DNA of 63,617 bases, counting the filler, from Trichomonas gallinae (lineage: Eukaryota), in the NCBI GenBank assembly GCA_008369845.1. It is 10 parts of 10 records of this genome, joined end to end, with 100 filler letters (N's around TTAATTAATTAA, not from the genome) between each part and the next. Parts side by side here need not be neighbours in the genome. Positions count along the whole stretch, not along the records: positions 23,050 to 29,274 come from MRSU01000495.1; 9 more parts are not named here. One strand, 5' to 3'. Numbering within the stretch: position 1 is the first letter of the stretch; each line of letters begins with the position of its first letter. The notes below the pieces were generated by a model. It saw nothing but the letters and a program-made list of their open reading frames with translations. It did no database searches and was not told the origin of the DNA. The translations under genes and the position numbers were made by a program. Positions 11,560 to 62,322 of this stretch are shown in pieces.

Positions 11560-11631
11560 GTCCCAGTAGTATATTGGTTAGAATGGATCCTTGACACGGA
11601 TCAGAGGCCAGTTCGATTCTGGCCTGGGACA
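11560..11631 (+). tRNA. tRNA-Val (anticodon GAC)
   Basis: Acceptor stem GTCCCAG/CTGGGAC plus discriminator A. Anticodon stem GATCC/GGATC with loop TT-GAC-AC. T arm GCCAG-TTCGATT-CTGGC. D loop contains TGG. Confidence 0.93.
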
Positions 11632-11731
11632 NNNNNNNNNNNNNNNNNNNNNNNNNNNNNNNNNNNNNNNNNNNNTTAATTAATTAANNNNNNNNNNNNN
11701 NNNNNNNNNNNNNNNNNNNNNNNNNNNNNNN
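11632..11731. other. Scaffold linker N44-TTAATTAATTAA-N44; identical linkers at 22950-23049, 29275-29374, 36619-36718, 44113-44212, 52958-53057, 57933-58032, 59303-59402 and 62323-62422
   Basis: The same 100-nt pattern with a six-frame stop spacer occurs at all nine gaps. Confidence 0.99.
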
Positions 11732-27154: not shown

Positions 27155-28054
27155 TTAGAGTTCTTCTGAATCATCAACACAGTATTGTTCTAATTCTGGA
27201 ACAGGATCACACTTAAACATTTTATTTGCTTTGCAGAAAATCTTTCCTGTGTCTCTTGTCCATAAATGCTGCTTATTTGTATATGAAGAAATAAAGCTGC
27301 AAATGTCTGGTGAAGATCTGATGAACATATCTGGTCTTTCGATGAAATATTGTGTAAGCTGATCAACTTGTTGTGCTTTTGTCTCATCTGAGAGCATCTT
27401 TACTAAACTCTTAGAAATTTTAATTGGACAAGAAGCATCTGAGGATTTAATCATTGCATTTATCAAAGATTTCGCGAATGAGAGAACATTTGCTGAGCCA
27501 ATGCATCCATTAAGTATTTTTGGAAGTGGCTGAGCATTGCAATAAGGAATTTCTCCTTGTGAAGAATTAAGAATTACGCCTGTATAGTTTAGAAGCGTAG
27601 AAATGTAGTGGTCATTGTCTCCATAGTTGCAGTATGCAGATCTTTCTTCAGCATCTCTAATTATTTCAACAACCGCGTTTGTTTTAATTGCATATTCATT
27701 AAAAAGCTTTGAAAAGTTTTCGAGTTGACCAAGTCGTCCTATTCTTTCTAATAAACGTGTTGTGATACTATCATCCTGTGTTTGTGCTGTTAATTCTTTA
27801 ATAAGTCTATTGAACGTGTAATTGAAGAACTCTACTGGACTATCTCTCAACTGATCGGATTCGTAGTTAATTGTCATCCTTCTGATCTTGAAAATGAACC
27901 AAACAAGGAAGCCAAGCCAGATCAATAAAAAGATTAGAAAGCCGATTTGGAATTCGAGCGATTGGAAGAACTCAGTCCACTTTCCGGCAGTTTTCTCAGC
28001 CTTGTTTTTGAGCTTGTCAAACTGAGAAACTTGAGCTTTTGCTTTGTTACCCAT
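27155..28054 (-). CDS. Hypothetical single-pass membrane protein
   Basis: 299-aa ORF with AAAATG start and TM helix IGFLIFLLIWLGFLVWFIF followed by KIRR. Confidence 0.8.
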   Translation of the reverse strand: MGNKAKAQVSQFDKLKNKAEKTAGKWTEFFQSLEFQIGFLIFLLIWLGFLVWFIFKIRRMTINYESDQLRDSPVEFFNYTFNRLIKELTAQTQDDSITTRLLERIGRLGQLENFSKLFNEYAIKTNAVVEIIRDAEERSAYCNYGDNDHYISTLLNYTGVILNSSQGEIPYCNAQPLPKILNGCIGSANVLSFAKSLINAMIKSSDASCPIKISKSLVKMLSDETKAQQVDQLTQYFIERPDMFIRSSPDICSFISSYTNKQHLWTRDTGKIFCKANKMFKCDPVPELEQYCVDDSEEL

Positions 28055-28895
28055 TTTTGAAGTCCCCTGTTTTATAAAAATCAGCCCCTATTTCTGATCT
28101 TAAGATTTTTAAAATCCATTGCGATAAGGTTTATATGAATGAGCAGCATAAATATATACTTTTTGTTGACATTTAGATCATATATTTATAATAAACTTGA
28201 ACTTAAGCATATATACTAAATTTGATATAATTTCTTTATTTGTGCTAGAAACTGGTTAATTCTTAGCGCATATATCTTTCAATGTTAATAATGAAATAGA
28301 TGGTTTAATTGATACGATTTAGTTATTTTATAATGTCGTAATGAATGATGCTGAAAAAATAACCTTATTTTAGTGGAAAAATACAAATGCTGGAAAAATA
28401 ACCTTGAAATAATAAAGATTCATCGGAATATTCTATATAATAAGATGCATCACAATGTAAAGTATATATTGCATTATGGGTTAAATTGTAAAACACTAAA
28501 TATTTGAACACATATGAATGAGAAATAATTATGCTACTTTTACGTAAAATATGTCTAATTTAGAGTCTATTATGAAAGGTCATTTTAATTTTACAAAAAA
28601 AATTGTAAAAACGATTATTACGGATTCAAAACGAATCCTTATTCGATATTAGATATGTGGTTAATAAAATTTCATTATTTTAATCGCAAAACGTTGACGA
28701 TAGAATTTTACAGTATTCAAAATATTTTCATAAAATATTGATATACTATATGTCTATATTAATATTCCGCGAAAATAAATAAGTGTCAGATTCTCATTTT
28801 TGAATTAAAAATTGACATTTGGCCTTTCTCATTTTTTGTTGGTGGAGAAGGGCCATTTGACTCTTAAACAACTGCAGAGAGGCTAACACTGCATA

Positions 28896-29001
28896 GTATG
28901 TATTAATGTGCGATGATGAGAAATTCTCCGCGTTCTACAACTTCGTGTTGATATTTTAACTCATCTGAGCACAACTTTTAAGCTTAATTACTAACACACA
29001 G
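28896..29001 (+). other. Spliceosomal intron, 106 nt
   Basis: 5' splice site GTATGT at 28896-28901. Exact trichomonad fused branch/3' motif ACTAACACACAG at 28990-29001, preceded by T to give TACTAAC. Confidence 0.85.
28907..28973 (+). ncRNA. Intronic box C/D snoRNA
   Basis: Terminal stem TGTGC/GCACA, box C ATGATGA at 28913-28919, box D CTGA at 28965-28968, C'-like GTGTTGA at 28945-28951. Length 67 nt. Confidence 0.85.
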
Positions 29002-29195
29002 TATTAAAATTCCTTTGGTTCCATTTACAAGATTGCAATACAGCAGTTCCCTTATCAATAGCATTATATCAATTTTTTTGATAAATAAGCGTGTTTGATC
29101 ATCTTAGATACACTTTATTGAATTAATTAGTGTTATTAGTTCATCAAATTGGGTTTTAAAGCTGCATATTATTGAGTTTACGTATTAAATTTTGT

Positions 29196-29274
29196 TACCG
29201 TACGTTTCCAATTTTTTCCCAAATTTTTTTGGTACCCAAAAATACGTATTTTGTTAATTTCTCGATGAATATAG
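29196..29274 (+). mobile_element. Probable DNA-transposon left end (TA|CCGT.., Tc1/mariner/pogo-like)
   Basis: TA+CCGT begins 79 nt before the gap, the same offset seen at other repeat-bounded contig ends. Confidence 0.45.
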
Positions 29275-29374
29275 NNNNNNNNNNNNNNNNNNNNNNNNNN
29301 NNNNNNNNNNNNNNNNNNTTAATTAATTAANNNNNNNNNNNNNNNNNNNNNNNNNNNNNNNNNNNNNNNNNNNN

Positions 29375-45276: not shown

Positions 45277-46482
45277 ATGATTTTCCTAGCATTGGCCACA
45301 GTACTGCAGCTAAATCTACTAGATCAACCAGATAAATGTCCCGAGAATGGTGGATATTTCTTTCCTTTGCTTTATGTTACTGGTAATTTTTCCAGACAAA
45401 ATACATATGCACCGAGAACATTGATTAATGGGACAATTTATGTAACTGTTAAGACTGGAAAAAAACAGACAATAGTTCTAAATTTTCCGAATGATACGAA
45501 AGAACATTTATTAACATTTGGGAATAAAGATAAAACAAAGAATATTCCATTCAATTATACAACACCAGATATACCAAAATATTATAATGTTACTTTTAAG
45601 GCTTCTCAGAAATATATCGAAAATTGTATTACCATTGTTTCTAAAAATGTTACGGTAGTTGATATTCTTCCAGAACCAACACCAAATATAACTCCAATAA
45701 CAACTATATTAACTCCGTCAATTACTCCTTTAACAACTCCAAGTATAACACCCTCAATAACATCAAAAATAACACCAAGCATAACACCATCAATAACTCC
45801 AAGTATGACACCATCAATAACACTAAGCACAACACCATCAATAACACCAATCATAACACCATCAATAACTCCAAATATAACACCAACAATAACTCCAAGT
45901 ATGACACCATCATCAACACCAAGTCTAACACCATCAAAAACTTTCTCAGTCACACCAAGCTCAACATACTTAACGACCCCTTCAACTACCTCGTCTCCAA
46001 CAACAGGAACAACAACAACACCATCAATAACACCCAGTGCGACCAAAATAACTTCTCCATCATCAACACCGATCTCAACTTTTTCCCCAACACCAACAAC
46101 AGCTTCCAGTATAACGACACATCCAACTCAACAAACAACACCATCAATAACACCAACAGTTTTTCCAAGTATGACTTATTCTGATACAACTAGCACAGAT
46201 AGCGGACAAGATGGTTCGGCAACAAAGAAAAAGATCCGATCAATAATTGTCGTTGTAGTTGTGTGCGTTATCGCTCTTCTCATCATTGTTGGAGCTGTTC
46301 TGAGTTTTATTTATCTACGAAGCACTGTTTCAGAGTTGGAAACAGAAGCAGAAACTGAAGAGGGTGAACCAGAGACAATCATTGGTATTCGAAACACAGA
46401 TAATACGCAAACATTTGATAATCCTCTATTTTCATCTCTCAATTATGAAGATGATCCTTTCGCAACTGTTTTCTCTCAATAA
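45277..46482 (+). CDS. Ig-like + TPS mucin-stalk single-pass surface protein (member 2)
   Basis: Signal-like N-terminus, beta-rich domain, ITPS repeats, TM, tail FDNPLF..DDPF. Confidence 0.9.
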   Translation: MIFLALATVLQLNLLDQPDKCPENGGYFFPLLYVTGNFSRQNTYAPRTLINGTIYVTVKTGKKQTIVLNFPNDTKEHLLTFGNKDKTKNIPFNYTTPDIPKYYNVTFKASQKYIENCITIVSKNVTVVDILPEPTPNITPITTILTPSITPLTTPSITPSITSKITPSITPSITPSMTPSITLSTTPSITPIITPSITPNITPTITPSMTPSSTPSLTPSKTFSVTPSSTYLTTPSTTSSPTTGTTTTPSITPSATKITSPSSTPISTFSPTPTTASSITTHPTQQTTPSITPTVFPSMTYSDTTSTDSGQDGSATKKKIRSIIVVVVVCVIALLIIVGAVLSFIYLRSTVSELETEAETEEGEPETIIGIRNTDNTQTFDNPLFSSLNYEDDPFATVFSQ

Positions 46483-47161: not shown

Positions 47162-48112
47162 ATGATGCTTTCCCTTCTTATTCGCTCATCGCGACCATTC
47201 AGTGAGAAGGTGATAGAATCTGGTGTATGCAACCCATCATTGCCACGTACATTCAAGCACTATATATTAAACTTTTCTGGAAAACAACAGGTTTCACTAA
47301 ACGAAAAATTTAATATTACTATAACGTACGGACAAACAAATGGAAACAGAAGCTTATATTTATGCAAAATTAATCCCACAGTTCAATTAGATGAAATGAA
47401 GCAAAAAGAATCAAAGACTATAGTTTATACTATAAATGATACAAGCAAATCTGGTAATTATAATATTGGATTTTATGTCCAATTTAGCAAAACAATATCC
47501 GAATATCATAGATATAACTACGTCGTTGTTGATGGTGTAGTTCCAACACCATCTCCATTCCCATCAACAATACCTATTCCAACAACAAAGCCAACAACAC
47601 AACCAACAACAATACCAACAACACAACCAACTTCAAAACCAACAGAGCAACCAACATCAAAACCAACAACACAACCAACATCAAAACCAACAACACAACC
47701 AACATCAATACCAACAACACAATCAACATCAATGCCAACAGAACAGCCAACTTCTAAACCAACAGAACAACCAAGTAAAATGCCAACAAGAAGTGCAATG
47801 TTTACAAATTCAACTAGTTCTGATAGTGATGAAGGTGGAACACCACAAAATAAGAAGTTTCGATCATTTATTCTTATTGGAATAATTTGCACAATGGCTG
47901 TTTTTATCATTATTGCTATTATTTTGATTTTCATTCATTTCAGAAACTCTAGATCACAACTTGAAACAGAGACAGAAGTCGGTGATGAGCTGTCAGAAAC
48001 ACTACTCAGAGTTCCAACTGGAGATAACACAATAACTCTCGATAATCCTCTATTTTCATCAATGAATTACGATGAAAATCCACTGAGATCTGCTTTTGAT
48101 GATGATATTTAA
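47162..48112 (+). CDS. Ig-like + PT mucin-stalk single-pass surface protein (member 3)
   Basis: PTTQ/PTSK repeats, TM, tail LDNPLF. Confidence 0.9.
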   Translation: MMLSLLIRSSRPFSEKVIESGVCNPSLPRTFKHYILNFSGKQQVSLNEKFNITITYGQTNGNRSLYLCKINPTVQLDEMKQKESKTIVYTINDTSKSGNYNIGFYVQFSKTISEYHRYNYVVVDGVVPTPSPFPSTIPIPTTKPTTQPTTIPTTQPTSKPTEQPTSKPTTQPTSKPTTQPTSIPTTQSTSMPTEQPTSKPTEQPSKMPTRSAMFTNSTSSDSDEGGTPQNKKFRSFILIGIICTMAVFIIIAIILIFIHFRNSRSQLETETEVGDELSETLLRVPTGDNTITLDNPLFSSMNYDENPLRSAFDDDI

Positions 48113-50875: not shown

Positions 50876-52342
50876 ATGAATCGATTTTTGGTTTCAACAT
50901 CATTAATACTTATTGCAATTCTAACCGCAACAACATTATTGTTACCTACTTCTAGTACAGTGATAAACGACAAATCATCAAATCATGTACATCTCAAATC
51001 TTTTGGAGCAATTACGAAGGCTAATGTTAATTCATGTCCTACATCAGGAAAATGTTATAGTCCGAGTAATAAAGTTTGGCTAAATATTGATGAACAATAT
51101 TCTATTATTTATACCAAACTAAATTCTGAAGTTAACATCCCAATAGAATTTGGAATGACTGACACTAGTGTTAAAAATGCATATCTTTTTATTAGCAGTT
51201 CGAGCGCATCTGCTTTTACTACAAAAGGAACATTAAGCAAAACATTTAATTATAGATTTTCGGCCAAAAGAACTGGACGTGTCCCGCTACAAATACATGT
51301 ATCCGACACTGGTTCAGAAACAACACCATATAAAAACATTGATATTTATATTGAAGATATTACAATCACCAAGGAACCAAATCCATGCTATTATCCGGGA
51401 GACACTGTGAAATTTTCTGCAAATATATATATACAACCTAGTGAAATGGTTAGTGTAAAGCAACAATTTCAAAATAACGAGATCACAGATGTTACTAAAT
51501 TATCTTTACGTAATAATCCAGAGCCAGTTGATTTTACATATAAAATTCCTTTGAACGAAGTGCCAGATGAAAAGACAATAACAATTTATGCATCCAATAA
51601 TGTTGGACGAGAAATCACATATAAATTAAAAATTAAGGTGATTAAACTACCTGATCGAAGTCCATTTTTGACACCATCAACGACACCAAATTCAACTCCA
51701 TCATCGACACTAAGTTCAACTCCATCATCGACACCAAGTTCAACGCCATCATCGACACCAAGCTCAACTCCATCATCAACACAAAAATCAACTCCATCAT
51801 CGACACCAAGTTCAACACCATCATCGACACCAAGCTCAATTCCATCATCAACACCAAGTTCCACTCCAAATACAACACCAAGCTCAATTCCATCATCAAC
51901 ACCAAGTTCCACTCCAAATACAACACCATTAATAATTCCACCCAAAAAACCAGATATGAATCCTTCACGAACACCTCAAGAAAAAGCAAATTCTAGTTTG
52001 TTACAAGAATATCCTAATACTACAAAAAATAACAATAATTTTCCATTAGGTGCTATCATTGGGATTGTTTGTGGATTATTAGTTTTGGCTATTGTAATAG
52101 TTGTTTTGATTTTTGTTATTATGAGAAAATCTGATGATGATGCAAAGAGTGAAGTTACTGATGATGAATTAGCTCAAGAAACAGTAATCATTCTAAACTC
52201 GGCAGATGTAATTTCTACTGCAGATAACCCATTATTTACTACAACTGTTTGTGACTCTGAAATAGATCCTTTTGACGATGGTTTTGAAGCAGATGATATA
52301 CAAGGCTTGTTTTCTGTACGGAACGAAGACGGCATTCTATAG
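50876..52342 (+). CDS. Two Ig-like domains + STPS stalk single-pass surface protein (member 5)
   Basis: Signal peptide, beta-rich repeats, STPS repeats, TM, tail ADNPLF..IDPFDDGF. Confidence 0.92.
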   Translation: MNRFLVSTSLILIAILTATTLLLPTSSTVINDKSSNHVHLKSFGAITKANVNSCPTSGKCYSPSNKVWLNIDEQYSIIYTKLNSEVNIPIEFGMTDTSVKNAYLFISSSSASAFTTKGTLSKTFNYRFSAKRTGRVPLQIHVSDTGSETTPYKNIDIYIEDITITKEPNPCYYPGDTVKFSANIYIQPSEMVSVKQQFQNNEITDVTKLSLRNNPEPVDFTYKIPLNEVPDEKTITIYASNNVGREITYKLKIKVIKLPDRSPFLTPSTTPNSTPSSTLSSTPSSTPSSTPSSTPSSTPSSTQKSTPSSTPSSTPSSTPSSIPSSTPSSTPNTTPSSIPSSTPSSTPNTTPLIIPPKKPDMNPSRTPQEKANSSLLQEYPNTTKNNNNFPLGAIIGIVCGLLVLAIVIVVLIFVIMRKSDDDAKSEVTDDELAQETVIILNSADVISTADNPLFTTTVCDSEIDPFDDGFEADDIQGLFSVRNEDGIL

Positions 52343-53368: not shown

Positions 53369-56300
53369 ATGGTTAAAGTCCAATTCGATCCCGATCTATC
53401 AGAGGATCCGAAGGACCAACCAGTTGAAAGCAACTTAACAGACTCCAACAAGCTCAATATGACAGAATTTGGCCTTTCATTCATAACATTTTACTTCTCA
53501 AGGATTTCATTCTGGTATTATTTCTCAATTTTTATATTGCAATTGTGCGTAGAGACTCCAATATACTTTGTGTCTACACTTATCCCAATGCTTTTCACAT
53601 TTGCGTCTTCTGTCGCGATCTATATTTTACAATCAGTCAGCAAAAGGAAACTAAATGCAGAAACAGATAAAAATAAAGTCATAGTTCGCAGAAATAGACA
53701 ATGGGTTGAAATATTACAGAAAAATATTAAAAGCGGTGATGTAATCAAACTTCATAACGGAGATATTGCGCCTTGTGACGTCATTTTACTAGGAACGGGC
53801 AGAAATATGCAAATAGCAGTAAACACTCGAATAATTGATGGAAAAAATCAGCTTCGTTCAAAAAAACCAATACAAACTAACACAGATATGTTTCAGCCAT
53901 CGAATATTCTAACAACAAACTTCTCAATGGACTACAAGCGAATACCAGAAGATGTTCTTCCGCCACTAACAGAAAGAGTTCAATTCGATGGTACTCTTGA
54001 ATGCGGAGAACAAACATTCCAAGTCTCAAATGAGCAATTTATCGAGAAATTTTCGATCGTTTATCACACAGATGACATCATTGTCGGTGCTGTTTACACT
54101 GGTAGTGATTGTAGATGTTCATTACACAGCAAAACTGGATATTTCCGCTCAACACTATTAGAAAAGCAACTCAACAGACAAAATATAATACAAATACTAC
54201 TGATTTTCTTCCTTTCAACAGTAGGGGCAATAGTTTCAATGTTTTATCGAAATGAAGCTGGAGATTGGGCATCAACAACATCAATGTTGCCATTACAATA
54301 CTATACAAGAAGCTTTGCCAACTTTTTAGTCCTTTTAACTCCACTTTCTCCTCTTGAATTATATATAATGATAGATATTTCATTATTTATACATTCGTTC
54401 TTCCTAAAAAATGCTACACTTTCATCTGTAAACAGATTGGATGAGTTAACTCACATAGATTCTGTTGTTGCTTCAAAATCTCTTTTACTCGGCACTCTTC
54501 CGCCAACAATCAAGCGAATTTATGTGTCAGGACAAATGTTTGGGCAATCATTAACATCACAGCAGCTTTCTGAGTCAGGATCTCCAAATCCAGAAAATAC
54601 AGTTTTCGATGAAACATTTTTCCCTGAAAATACACATGATCCGTTTATTGGGCTCTTTTTGGAGCACATCGCAGTATGCCATCAAGCAACTGTCCAATAT
54701 GATAATAATTTTATTTCATTTATTTCATCAATTCCAGCAGAAGAACCATTGCTGAGACTAGCTTATAAAAATGGTCTCACATTTATGGGAAGGGGCAAGA
54801 ATAACATGATTATCTTGAATTCAACAAATTTAACAGATATATTACTGGGAACAGGATTCACACAGTATCCGAATACATCTGATGCATTTTTCAGCCAAGT
54901 AATCTATATCCCAGCATCAAAGCAGCATCCGAGAATGTCTGCATTAATCAGAAACAAAGGTGCAAGTCTTTTATTCACACGCTGGAGTGTTGGCGAAGAT
55001 GTCAGCCTCGATGGACTTCCAATACAGATATTAAAAGATCTCCAGGGCCAAGGTTTGCAAGTTTCAATTTTTTCATACAAAGAAATTTCGAACAACGACT
55101 TGAACTTTTCCGGGCCAGATTTGATCCAGAAATTCGCCGAATTAGAGAAAACCAGCACATTCCTCGCCATGGTAGGCTTCGAGGACCCGCCAAGAGATGG
55201 TGTTCTCGCCTTTATCAACAGAGTTAGATGGAGTGGAATCCAAATAGTTTTGCCTTCTCAGTCAGGAAGATCAACATTAATAACTCACGCACTAAGTTTA
55301 GGCGTTCTAAAGAAGAACCAAGATCCAATGATACTAAGAGGCAGCACGCAGCTTGACGTTGACGCAGAGCTGGAGAGGATGTCATCAAATATAGGAGCAT
55401 TCGATGACTCTTTGCTAGCATCTGGCTCGCAGATACAATTCATTGTCGCGTCAAAAGTTAAAAACGTGATACAATTGTTGAAATTTTTCACAGTGATTTT
55501 GATAGAAAACTGTGAGTCAAATCAAGTGCAGGACCTCGTGACATACATGAGGCGGTCGGGGAAGATGACTGTCATAGGCATTGGCCAGTCTATATCGGAC
55601 AGCGCCTACATGGCTGCTTCTTCGATGTCTATAACCGTCACAGATGATTCTCCGACTCCTTGCGGCATCGTCAGCGACCTAACTGTTGAAAGGTTCGACC
55701 ATTTAAGCGAGATAATCTTCGTAACCTGCTCGTGGTTGTATGACAGAATCACAACAATGATCAACTTCACTATTCCACGCGATTCATTCATCGCTTTCAT
55801 GCAACTTTCTTACCAGTTCCAGGCAGCCTTTTCAGGCACTCCGCTCTTCACTGGGCCTCTTCTCTTATCAATTTTGCTGTTTAGTGGAGCTCCAGCTGTC
55901 TCACGGTCAGTGTTGAACAAGCGAGTTGATGAATATATACTCAGAACATCGCCGCAGCAGAGATACTTGAAGCAGAAGAAAGTAGTAAGGCTTTCTTTCT
56001 CAAGATTTGCAATTTCGACAACATTGAGTTTGCTCGGCTCTATATTCACTATTTGGTTCAAAGCGATTGTTGATCATGACGTCAGGCGCCCGTATAATGA
56101 TACAATCAGTCTCCCACAGTTCAGGTATTCTATATGCGCGACATTCATTCTGTCTTGTGTAGCGTGGACTGCGACGCAAACAGATACATGGACACTGGCT
56201 CACAATATATTTTTGTTCGGATCATTGATAATCTTCTTCATGGGGTATGGATTAGTCACAGATACACAAGGAACGGCGCCGAGCTCAGGAGTTTCTTCTT

Positions 56301-56458
56301 CGATGTCTACTTCAATAATTTCGACATTGTCAACATTTTTGTTCCCAATCATATCAGTTTTCCTTCAATTCTCTTACACACTATTCAAGAGATTCATTGA
56401 ACAAGAAAGACAGGATATACGCCACAATATTCCGCAAGAAACTATCGAATTATTATAA
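53369..56458 (+). CDS. P4-type ATPase (flippase)-like protein with degenerate catalytic motifs
   Basis: IKSGDVIKL..PCDVILL, AVYTGSD, IAVCH, LAMVGFED and a multi-TM C-terminus. ATG at 53369 follows TCATA; the ORF track start is a TTG. Confidence 0.9.
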   Translation: MVKVQFDPDLSEDPKDQPVESNLTDSNKLNMTEFGLSFITFYFSRISFWYYFSIFILQLCVETPIYFVSTLIPMLFTFASSVAIYILQSVSKRKLNAETDKNKVIVRRNRQWVEILQKNIKSGDVIKLHNGDIAPCDVILLGTGRNMQIAVNTRIIDGKNQLRSKKPIQTNTDMFQPSNILTTNFSMDYKRIPEDVLPPLTERVQFDGTLECGEQTFQVSNEQFIEKFSIVYHTDDIIVGAVYTGSDCRCSLHSKTGYFRSTLLEKQLNRQNIIQILLIFFLSTVGAIVSMFYRNEAGDWASTTSMLPLQYYTRSFANFLVLLTPLSPLELYIMIDISLFIHSFFLKNATLSSVNRLDELTHIDSVVASKSLLLGTLPPTIKRIYVSGQMFGQSLTSQQLSESGSPNPENTVFDETFFPENTHDPFIGLFLEHIAVCHQATVQYDNNFISFISSIPAEEPLLRLAYKNGLTFMGRGKNNMIILNSTNLTDILLGTGFTQYPNTSDAFFSQVIYIPASKQHPRMSALIRNKGASLLFTRWSVGEDVSLDGLPIQILKDLQGQGLQVSIFSYKEISNNDLNFSGPDLIQKFAELEKTSTFLAMVGFEDPPRDGVLAFINRVRWSGIQIVLPSQSGRSTLITHALSLGVLKKNQDPMILRGSTQLDVDAELERMSSNIGAFDDSLLASGSQIQFIVASKVKNVIQLLKFFTVILIENCESNQVQDLVTYMRRSGKMTVIGIGQSISDSAYMAASSMSITVTDDSPTPCGIVSDLTVERFDHLSEIIFVTCSWLYDRITTMINFTIPRDSFIAFMQLSYQFQAAFSGTPLFTGPLLLSILLFSGAPAVSRSVLNKRVDEYILRTSPQQRYLKQKKVVRLSFSRFAISTTLSLLGSIFTIWFKAIVDHDVRRPYNDTISLPQFRYSICATFILSCVAWTATQTDTWTLAHNIFLFGSLIIFFMGYGLVTDTQGTAPSSGVSSSMSTSIISTLSTFLFPIISVFLQFSYTLFKRFIEQERQDIRHNIPQETIELL

Positions 56459-62249: not shown

Positions 62250-62322
62250 GGGCCTTTAGCTCACCTGGGAGAGCGTGCGACTGAAGATCGCAAGGTACGT
62301 GGTTCAAGTCCGCGAAGGCCCA
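62250..62322 (+). tRNA. tRNA-Phe (anticodon GAA)
   Basis: Acceptor stem GGGCCTT/AAGGCCC plus A. D arm GCTC/GAGC. Anticodon arm TGCGA-CTGAAGA-TCGCA. T arm CGTGG-TTCAAGT-CCGCG. Confidence 0.96.

Follow-up and report, generated by a model that had tools for sequence, protein, structure and literature searches.

A candidate intronic box C/D guide RNA in non-coding DNA of Trichomonas gallinae and its relatives among the "inactive" introns of T. vaginalis and T. stableri

Vertebrate snoRNA hosts such as UHG/SNHG1 and GAS5 have non-coding exons and a functional product that resides in their introns; they are multi-intron, polyadenylated hosts and their introns are long. Among the fungi, monocistronic non-coding snoRNA hosts, e.g., that of snR50, are found in Candida (PMC5033589), and fungal snoRNA clusters have been likened to UHG (PMC3596301). 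Single-intron fungal hosts are thus well described, at least as far as the available parts of these two papers go, and the premise of a preliminary description of the locus dealt with here, namely that non-coding snoRNA hosts are known mainly from animals, has to be abandoned.

As to Trichomonas, eight C/D snoRNAs of T. vaginalis were reported by Chen et al. 2009 (PMC2817412) and, in the portions of their texts accessible to us, Chen et al. 2011 considered intronic snoRNAs highly unlikely in this genus and Collins 2011 expected its snoRNAs to be less tied to splicing. A single sentence of Simoes-Barbosa et al. 2008 mentions, as unpublished data, that T. vaginalis intronic snoRNAs lack TMG caps (PMC2588526); these RNAs belong to the same species as many of the relatives described below, but their sequences, loci, class and host type are not given in the accessible text. 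This remark suggests that specialists are already aware of such RNAs, so that the earlier statement that no parabasalid case was known must be amended on this point, while it still applies to the loci themselves: our literature search found no paper describing them, with a sizeable minority chance that one exists. The terms "snoRNA" and "small nucleolar" do not occur in the available text of the 2026 long-read paper, nor does "Trichomonas" occur in PMC3511168.

The locus presented here lies in a stretch of T. gallinae DNA of 63,617 nucleotides, analysed as a whole and hereafter called the window. It holds a predicted C/D guide RNA in a type A intron of non-coding DNA, and this RNA is probably freed by the splicing of a short host transcript.

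The intron and its box C/D unit

The predicted trichomonad type A spliceosomal intron occupies positions 28896–29001 of the plus strand (106 nt) and is recognised by its splice signals, by a shuffle test and by the published consensus. It opens with the 5′ splice site GTATGTA (28896–28902), conforming to GTAYGT, and closes with the fused branch/3′ 12-mer ACTAACACACAG (28990–29001), which contains the type A 3′ motif ACTAACACAYAG and whose presumed branch A, deduced from the ACTAAC consensus, is nucleotide 28994. Both signals agree with the consensus given in the available parts of PMC12316389 and PMC13548475, and both the length of the intron and the 39 nt that it leaves outside the snoRNA stem are within the limits of type A introns (56–196 nt, with a single-stranded span of 25–44 nt). 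The 12-mer has its sole exact copy here on either strand of the 63.6-kb window and is expected 0.005 times per shuffled window (200 dinucleotide shuffles), the complete intron pattern being found in 0 of these 200 shuffles. It is also the only intron pattern in the entire window, as opposed to the series of introns, each with its snoRNA, that defines a host of the UHG/GAS5 type.

Wholly inside this intron, at 28907–28973 of the same strand, lies a box C/D snoRNA-like unit of 67 nt, identified from its sequence, shuffles, fold and sub-threshold Rfam matches. The unit is closed by a 5-bp terminal stem (TGTGC at 28907–28911 with GCACA at 28969–28973) and has a box C, ATGATGA (28913–28919), that fits the consensus RUGAUGA and a consensus box D, CTGA (28965–28968). 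Of its internal boxes, the C′-like GTGTTGA (28945–28951) is near consensus, while D′ is the degenerate CTAC (28935–28938), assigned by analogy with the family through a by-eye comparison with published intron rows, of which T. vaginalis row 7 carries a degenerate D′ as well. All the elements named in the preliminary description (GTATGT, the 12-mer, the intron of 106 nt, the stem and boxes C, C′ and D) were found again in their places, as was the spacing claimed there, with the stem 11 nt past the 5′ splice site and 21 nt short of the presumed branch A.

When the 87-nt interior of the intron was shuffled 5000 times, box C, box D and a 4-bp stem in strict form never came together, and boxes C and D without a stem did so 7 times; the strict pattern was present in 3 of 12,548 overlapping real 87-mers, a count that possibly includes tiles over 28896–29001 itself. 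The unit is more stable than expected (fold z −3.5), with equal stability in 0 of 200 shuffles. Nine of the 15 weak Rfam matches in the region are to C/D families spanning 28907–28973, the best of them scoring 21.5 bits against a cut-off of 40; no Rfam family reached its gathering score, and the weak matches to families other than snoRNAs (XIST_intron and MIR1520) were taken as chance. The sub-threshold Rfam scores, together with the fact that loose splice-motif patterns sought in very large collections gave chance matches only (3 viral contigs and 3 prokaryote genomes, all bacterial), might be read as the mark of short motifs accidentally juxtaposed in AT-rich intergenic DNA. The chances of this being so are practically nil: besides the 0 of 200 shuffles for the intron and the 0 of 5000 for the C/D unit, such an accident is refuted by the homologues in two other species. 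We thus regard the predicted presence of a C/D RNA within a real intron layout as almost certain, and the original proposal of a C/D RNA nested in an intron, at a Trichomonas locus devoid of a coding frame, is supported.

The flanking sequences

The putative non-coding exon 1 (28794–28895, plus strand) contains no ATG, and the three frames that run across the predicted junction, open for 35, 4 and 43 codons, include none led by Met. The putative exon 2 and its 3′ flank (29002–29274, plus strand) extend to the end of the contig; there is no ATG in 29002–29120, and TAAA is present at 29082, 29157 and 29186, UAAA being the poly(A) signal of T. vaginalis (PMC13548475, available part). Not a single ORF of at least 50 aa exists between 28054 and 30425, so that the region is indeed ORF-free as originally claimed, and the longest ATG-initiated frame in 28055–29274 has 33 aa. 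The nearest upstream gene (27155–28054) is on the minus strand and divergent. Overall, the host is probably non-coding. As to the exon claim of the preliminary description, the lack of ATG was confirmed, but the initiators cited as signals, present as they are, carry no weight: motifs of the TCAYW type number 922 across the window compared to 1000 expected. Initiator motifs being at chance level, the transcript ends 28794 and 29120 are to be regarded as guesses.

The contig ends at 29274, i.e., 273 nt past the intron, and an ATG at 29265 opens a frame of three codons that runs into the gap, the N-linker beginning at 29275. The snoRNA intron could therefore be spliced from the UTR of an mRNA that encodes a protein, the simplest case being a 5′ UTR whose gene is located past the contig end. 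Indeed, UTR introns have been found in T. vaginalis, about 10 in number and including three type A introns of 100–102 nt (PMC12316389, available part), and Candida snoRNAs are known from introns of both 5′ and 3′ UTRs (PMC5033589, available part). At this locus, however, the ATG of such an mRNA would have to be preceded by 263 nt of exon 2, compared with the short 5′ UTRs of T. vaginalis (PMC6260720, available part), the mRNA would have to run through the three TAAA signals just mentioned, and no support for it comes from the upstream gene, which is on the opposite strand. The relatives considered below bear further on this point.

A protein of a neighbouring gene is 88% identical to T. vaginalis TVAG_037640; the homologue of one neighbour protein was located on a record of 34,657,175 bases, while two other neighbours matched near-identical proteins only. 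Six contigs of a sequencing run (X1, of which the RNA origin is guessed), with 10–31 differing letters each, match four neighbouring ORFs and not 28048–29270, and have no bearing on expression; two further runs, X2 and X3, gave no matching contig. The stretch that separates the divergent gene from the snoRNA unit contains a 19-nt direct repeat (95%; 28348–28366 and 28387–28405); no other notable repeats were found. Within putative exon 1 a 14-bp hairpin (28820–28855; fold z −3.0) was considered as a possible H/ACA RNA and rejected, having neither a pocket nor an ACA tail. Just ahead of the intron, 28882–28896 presents a branch-like motif, GCTAACAC, followed by TGCATAG, whose last G is the first G of the 5′ splice site. 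This arrangement resembles the nested splice sites, joined by a shared G, that occur in snoRNA clusters of Candida; its branch-to-AG spacing is 3 nt above the canonical one and no 5′ splice site was found upstream of it. RCTAACAC occurs five times in the window (1.7 expected).

Elsewhere in the window, the tRNA genes at 11560–11631 and 62250–62322 both end exactly at N-linkers, which are 100 nt long, have a central stop-codon palindrome and are found at 11632–11731 and nine other places, revealing the window to be made up of chained contigs. Three ORFs (45277–46482, 47162–48112 and 50876–52342) look like single-pass surface proteins in that they combine repeats rich in Thr, Pro and Ser with a hydrophobic segment and an acidic tail. 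At 54538–54562, within the ORF 53369–56458, one stretch loosely and imperfectly matches the pattern of short (type B) introns, probably by chance.

Relatives among introns listed as inactive

The S3 Table of Callejas-Hernandez et al. 2025 lists introns that were found by motif and were not validated by RNA-seq, 34 for T. vaginalis and 20 for T. stableri (PMC12316389, available part). When these rows were compared with the window unit (this comparison and the control that follows were counted by eye, with no script), the succession stem–C–D′–C′–D–stem was recognised inside the splice signals in 18 of the 20 type A rows of T. vaginalis, namely rows 1–18, and the C/D layout in all 17 type A rows of T. 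stableri (rows 4–20), 13 of these 17 units closely matching T. vaginalis rows. The two T. vaginalis exceptions, rows 27 and 31, are without canonical splice motifs, overlap genes and have no C/D layout. The control consisted of 22 type A introns taken from protein genes of T. vaginalis (PMC6679479 Additional file 6), and in none of them was a box C seen to be followed by a box D with a stem. In their splice motifs, length and C/D layout the "inactive" type A introns are like the window unit, which is homologous to T. vaginalis rows 7 and 17 and to T. stableri row 14, these homologues being unlike it at three of the 10 positions of the D′ guide.

Box D is degenerate in T. vaginalis row 7 and T. 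stableri row 14. This closest homologue differs between the two species at 1 nt of 107, yet its box D is damaged, a pattern that suggests an atypical but selected C/D RNA.

None of the S3 relatives has supporting splice-junction reads according to the published table. The T. vaginalis members are labelled there "No RNAseq evidence" (14 of 18) or "Not assembled, Low coverage" (4 of 18), and those of T. stableri "No SJ reads" (7 of 17), without evidence (1 of 17) or of low coverage (9 of 17). The lack of junction reads in most family members has two possible implications. With regard to the UTR of an mRNA as the source of the intron, it is an adverse finding, for the UTR intron of an expressed mRNA should yield such reads; likewise, none of T. 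vaginalis rows 1–18 bears an "overlaps gene" remark. In T. stableri, by contrast with this, seven of the 17 units overlap an annotated gene, which speaks in favour of a UTR origin, and eight more are near one. Taken together with the evidence from the flanks, a UTR origin of the window intron appears distinctly unlikely.

The second implication is that the splice signals may be processing marks that do not lead to the joining of exons, either because only the first step takes place or because the snoRNA is released by nucleases and the signals are relics. Apart from the missing reads, such a possibility draws on splicing-independent snoRNA release and de-intronisation in yeast (PMC3596301 and PMC5033589, available parts) and on the tight spacing at the branch site. 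The sequences tell against it: every one of the 18 units of T. vaginalis and 16 of the 17 of T. stableri retain the 12-nt motif in full, the 3′ AG included, while relics would decay and an AG would be superfluous if only the first step were used; furthermore, the folded span of these introns equals that of introns that are spliced. We consider processing of this kind unlikely, and splicing of a short non-coding host remains our preferred interpretation.

The accessible main text of PMC12316389 does not contain the word "snoRNA" and mentions only in general terms that genes for small nucleolar RNAs may be located in 5′ UTR introns; to judge from this text, the C/D content of the "inactive" introns went unnoticed by its authors. 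Of the 41 introns that had been predicted in 2005, Wang et al. 2018 had already discarded 22 as lying in non-transcribed intergenic regions (PMC6260720, available part), and we infer that these 22 are largely the same set as the S3 orphans. The suspicion voiced at the outset that protein-centred intron surveys miss units of this kind is supported, and on a larger scale: the whole class was set aside in those surveys and constitutes a genus-wide family.

Guides, proposed processing and comparison with known hosts

In box C/D snoRNAs an antisense element of 10–21 nt immediately upstream of D or D′ pairs with rRNA. The rRNA used in the search for targets is that of a stand-in (locus L023) belonging to a relative, not the organism's own. 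With a trichomonad rDNA primer that appears in 22 papers, 34 metagenome loci were retrieved, 33 of which are parabasalid rDNA (L024 is not rDNA), and no viral contig matched the primer. In the SSU tree, which has 30 rows after the omission of four loci with too little SSU, L023 groups with L015, L019–L021 and L034; its position near Trichomonas is our assumption, made from the ITS1. After merging rows 8/13 and rows 9/10/12, the T. vaginalis family comprises 15 distinct units, and all 15 were found by eye to have a stretch of 10–12 nt antisense to L023 rRNA, with 0–2 G-U pairs, that stops 0–1 nt before D′, or 3 nt before it in the case of row 16. A recheck by tool of four guides, picked after the by-eye screen from among the 15, gave a match in each case on the antisense strand, where 0.00–0.01 matches are expected by chance. 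Rows 8/13 fit a universally conserved SSU site which we take to be the target of snR70/SNORD43.

The D′ guide of the homologues of the window unit (rows 7 and 17 and T. stableri row 14) pairs at 10 of 10 positions with the sarcin-ricin loop. In the window unit the three differences in this guide create two mismatches with that loop, and its candidate D′ antisense element (28924–28933, plus strand) can instead form a 10-bp duplex (nine Watson–Crick pairs and one G-U) with LSU rRNA at L023 position 4600, a pairing equalled by 46 of 600 shuffled guides. The site is near positions 2120–2130 of the Rfam LSU model and is paired in the same register, a single base being left unpaired ahead of the presumed D′; the variant of the site to which the guide is matched occurs in five of the 24 loci that hold it, all in the clade nearest Trichomonas. 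It is plausible, from these pairings, that the window guide has been retargeted to this LSU site, which as the actual target of the RNA is a tentative candidate whose prospects we put slightly short of even.

The same data allow for a less constructive interpretation, i.e., that the window copy arose by duplication of a guide for the sarcin-ricin loop, is drifting and has no methylation activity left. The altered guide and its two mismatches would fit such a history, as would the 46 shuffles that do as well on the alternative LSU match, the degenerate D′ and the damaged box D of the homologue in both T. vaginalis and T. stableri. However, the window copy is perfect in its box C, box D, stem and two splice signals, and its altered guide fits the LSU variant that is confined to five of 24 loci, all in the clade nearest Trichomonas; we hold drift to be very unlikely and continue to regard the RNA as a predicted guide.

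The D-side segment (28951–28964, plus strand) gave a different result. Its best duplex with the relative's rRNA has 7 bp and is equalled by 585 of 600 shuffles, and the segment folds against the 5′ half of its own RNA, as its row 7 counterpart also can. Hence, of the two guides proposed in the preliminary description for comparison with rRNA, the D′ one has a suggestive 10-bp match, whereas a D-side guide finds no rRNA target and has to be given up. Three other pairings were rejected: 28941–28952 has a 12-bp SSU match (two G-U) in most loci, but this match extends into C′ and is interrupted in the homologue; the D′ element reaches the same SSU helix as its second-best pairing, with an internal mismatch; and a D-side 9-bp match is present in L033 and not in L023.

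Long T. vaginalis introns are reported to fold so as to bring their splice sites to within 25–44 nt of each other, with a median of 37 (Hudson et al. 2019; PMC6679479, available part). In the window intron the two stretches that flank the snoRNA stem amount to 11 + 28 = 39 nt. Family introns of 115–135 nt have, by eye, an extra outer stem that leaves about 39–46 nt free, and this constancy of the free span suggests selection for splicing. In family members without an outer stem box D is 19–27 nt from the branch motif (by eye), and in the window unit it is 26 nt from the branch A. A distance of 26 nt is below the optimal spacing in vertebrates and counts against our interpretation. Complete splicing is favoured because of the folded geometry and the intact 3′ AG, and we rate as high the likelihood that the predicted intron is fully spliced.

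The pathway that we envisage would begin with the synthesis by RNA polymerase II of a short host precursor without a protein product. The terminal snoRNA stem would fold the intron, leaving 39 nt single-stranded, so that the guide RNA would double as the stem that long introns need; a U2-type spliceosome would then remove the lariat, and debranching and exonuclease trimming, for which there is a yeast precedent in intronic snoRNA release (PMC5033589, available part), would yield an RNA of 60–70 nt bound by the C/D proteins including fibrillarin. The D′ element could guide 2′-O-methylation of an LSU cytidine (L023 4603, by the plus-5 rule). The joined exons would likely be unstable or unpolyadenylated, which would explain the "inactive" calls made from RNA-seq. 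Every step beyond the layout of the sequence is inferred; splicing, target and host ends are predictions, and the UTR intron and processing without exon ligation are the alternatives to be kept in mind. Accordingly, the concept of a minimal host gene put forward in the preliminary description stands as regards a C/D RNA in an intron without a coding frame, and is putative as regards splicing, the ends and the non-UTR status.

If the family is viewed as a whole, the odds are somewhat better than even that about a third of the long introns of Trichomonas (in T. vaginalis 18 of 57, the total being made up of 39 active type A introns and the 18 orphans) represent snoRNA genes in their own right, each a minimal non-coding transcript with a single intron consisting of little beyond a C/D guide whose stem is the ruler for spliceability. 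If this is true, rRNA 2′-O-methylation in Trichomonas depends on the spliceosome, ribosome maturation is coupled to splicing, the orphan introns listed since 2005 are explained, and the question left open in 2025–2026, namely the identity of the perfectly conserved "inactive" intergenic introns of Trichomonas, receives a concrete answer, and a parasite of humans gains some 15 predicted guides for the methylation of its rRNA. The suggestion that such genes provide a reason to keep a spliceosome must be scaled down to an additive contribution at most, for 39 long and 24 short introns are also spliced from T. vaginalis protein-gene transcripts (PMC12316389, available part). Rows 6, 15 and 24 of the S2 Table of the same paper are RNA-seq-supported type A UTR introns of 100–102 nt (Prp18 paralogues and Lsm3; TVAGG3_0998030, TVAGG3_0105790 and TVAGG3_0535830), which is the length of a snoRNA intron.

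The arrangement as such is known from fungi and animals; the surprise is at the level of the lineage and no new mechanism is involved. Its extension to parabasalids bears on the age of non-coding intronic snoRNA hosts and on intron survival under massive loss. With UHG/SNHG1 and GAS5 the window unit, whose exons are putatively non-coding, would have in common the non-coding exons and the intronic product, but it consists of one very short intron in which box D is close to the branch A. The nearest likeness is to the Candida snR50 type, which shares with it, as far as the window unit is predicted from sequence, the single C/D snoRNA, the spliceosomal intron, the transcript lacking coding capacity, the intron-poor unicellular genome and canonical GTATGT and branch signals. 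Candida, however, belongs to a different supergroup and its splicing has been shown by RNA-seq, whereas that of the Trichomonas intron is predicted. Moreover, unlike those of Candida, the Trichomonas introns are of 100–137 nt, have a fused branch/3′ motif and are filled for the most part by the snoRNA, the stem of which appears to supply the folding.
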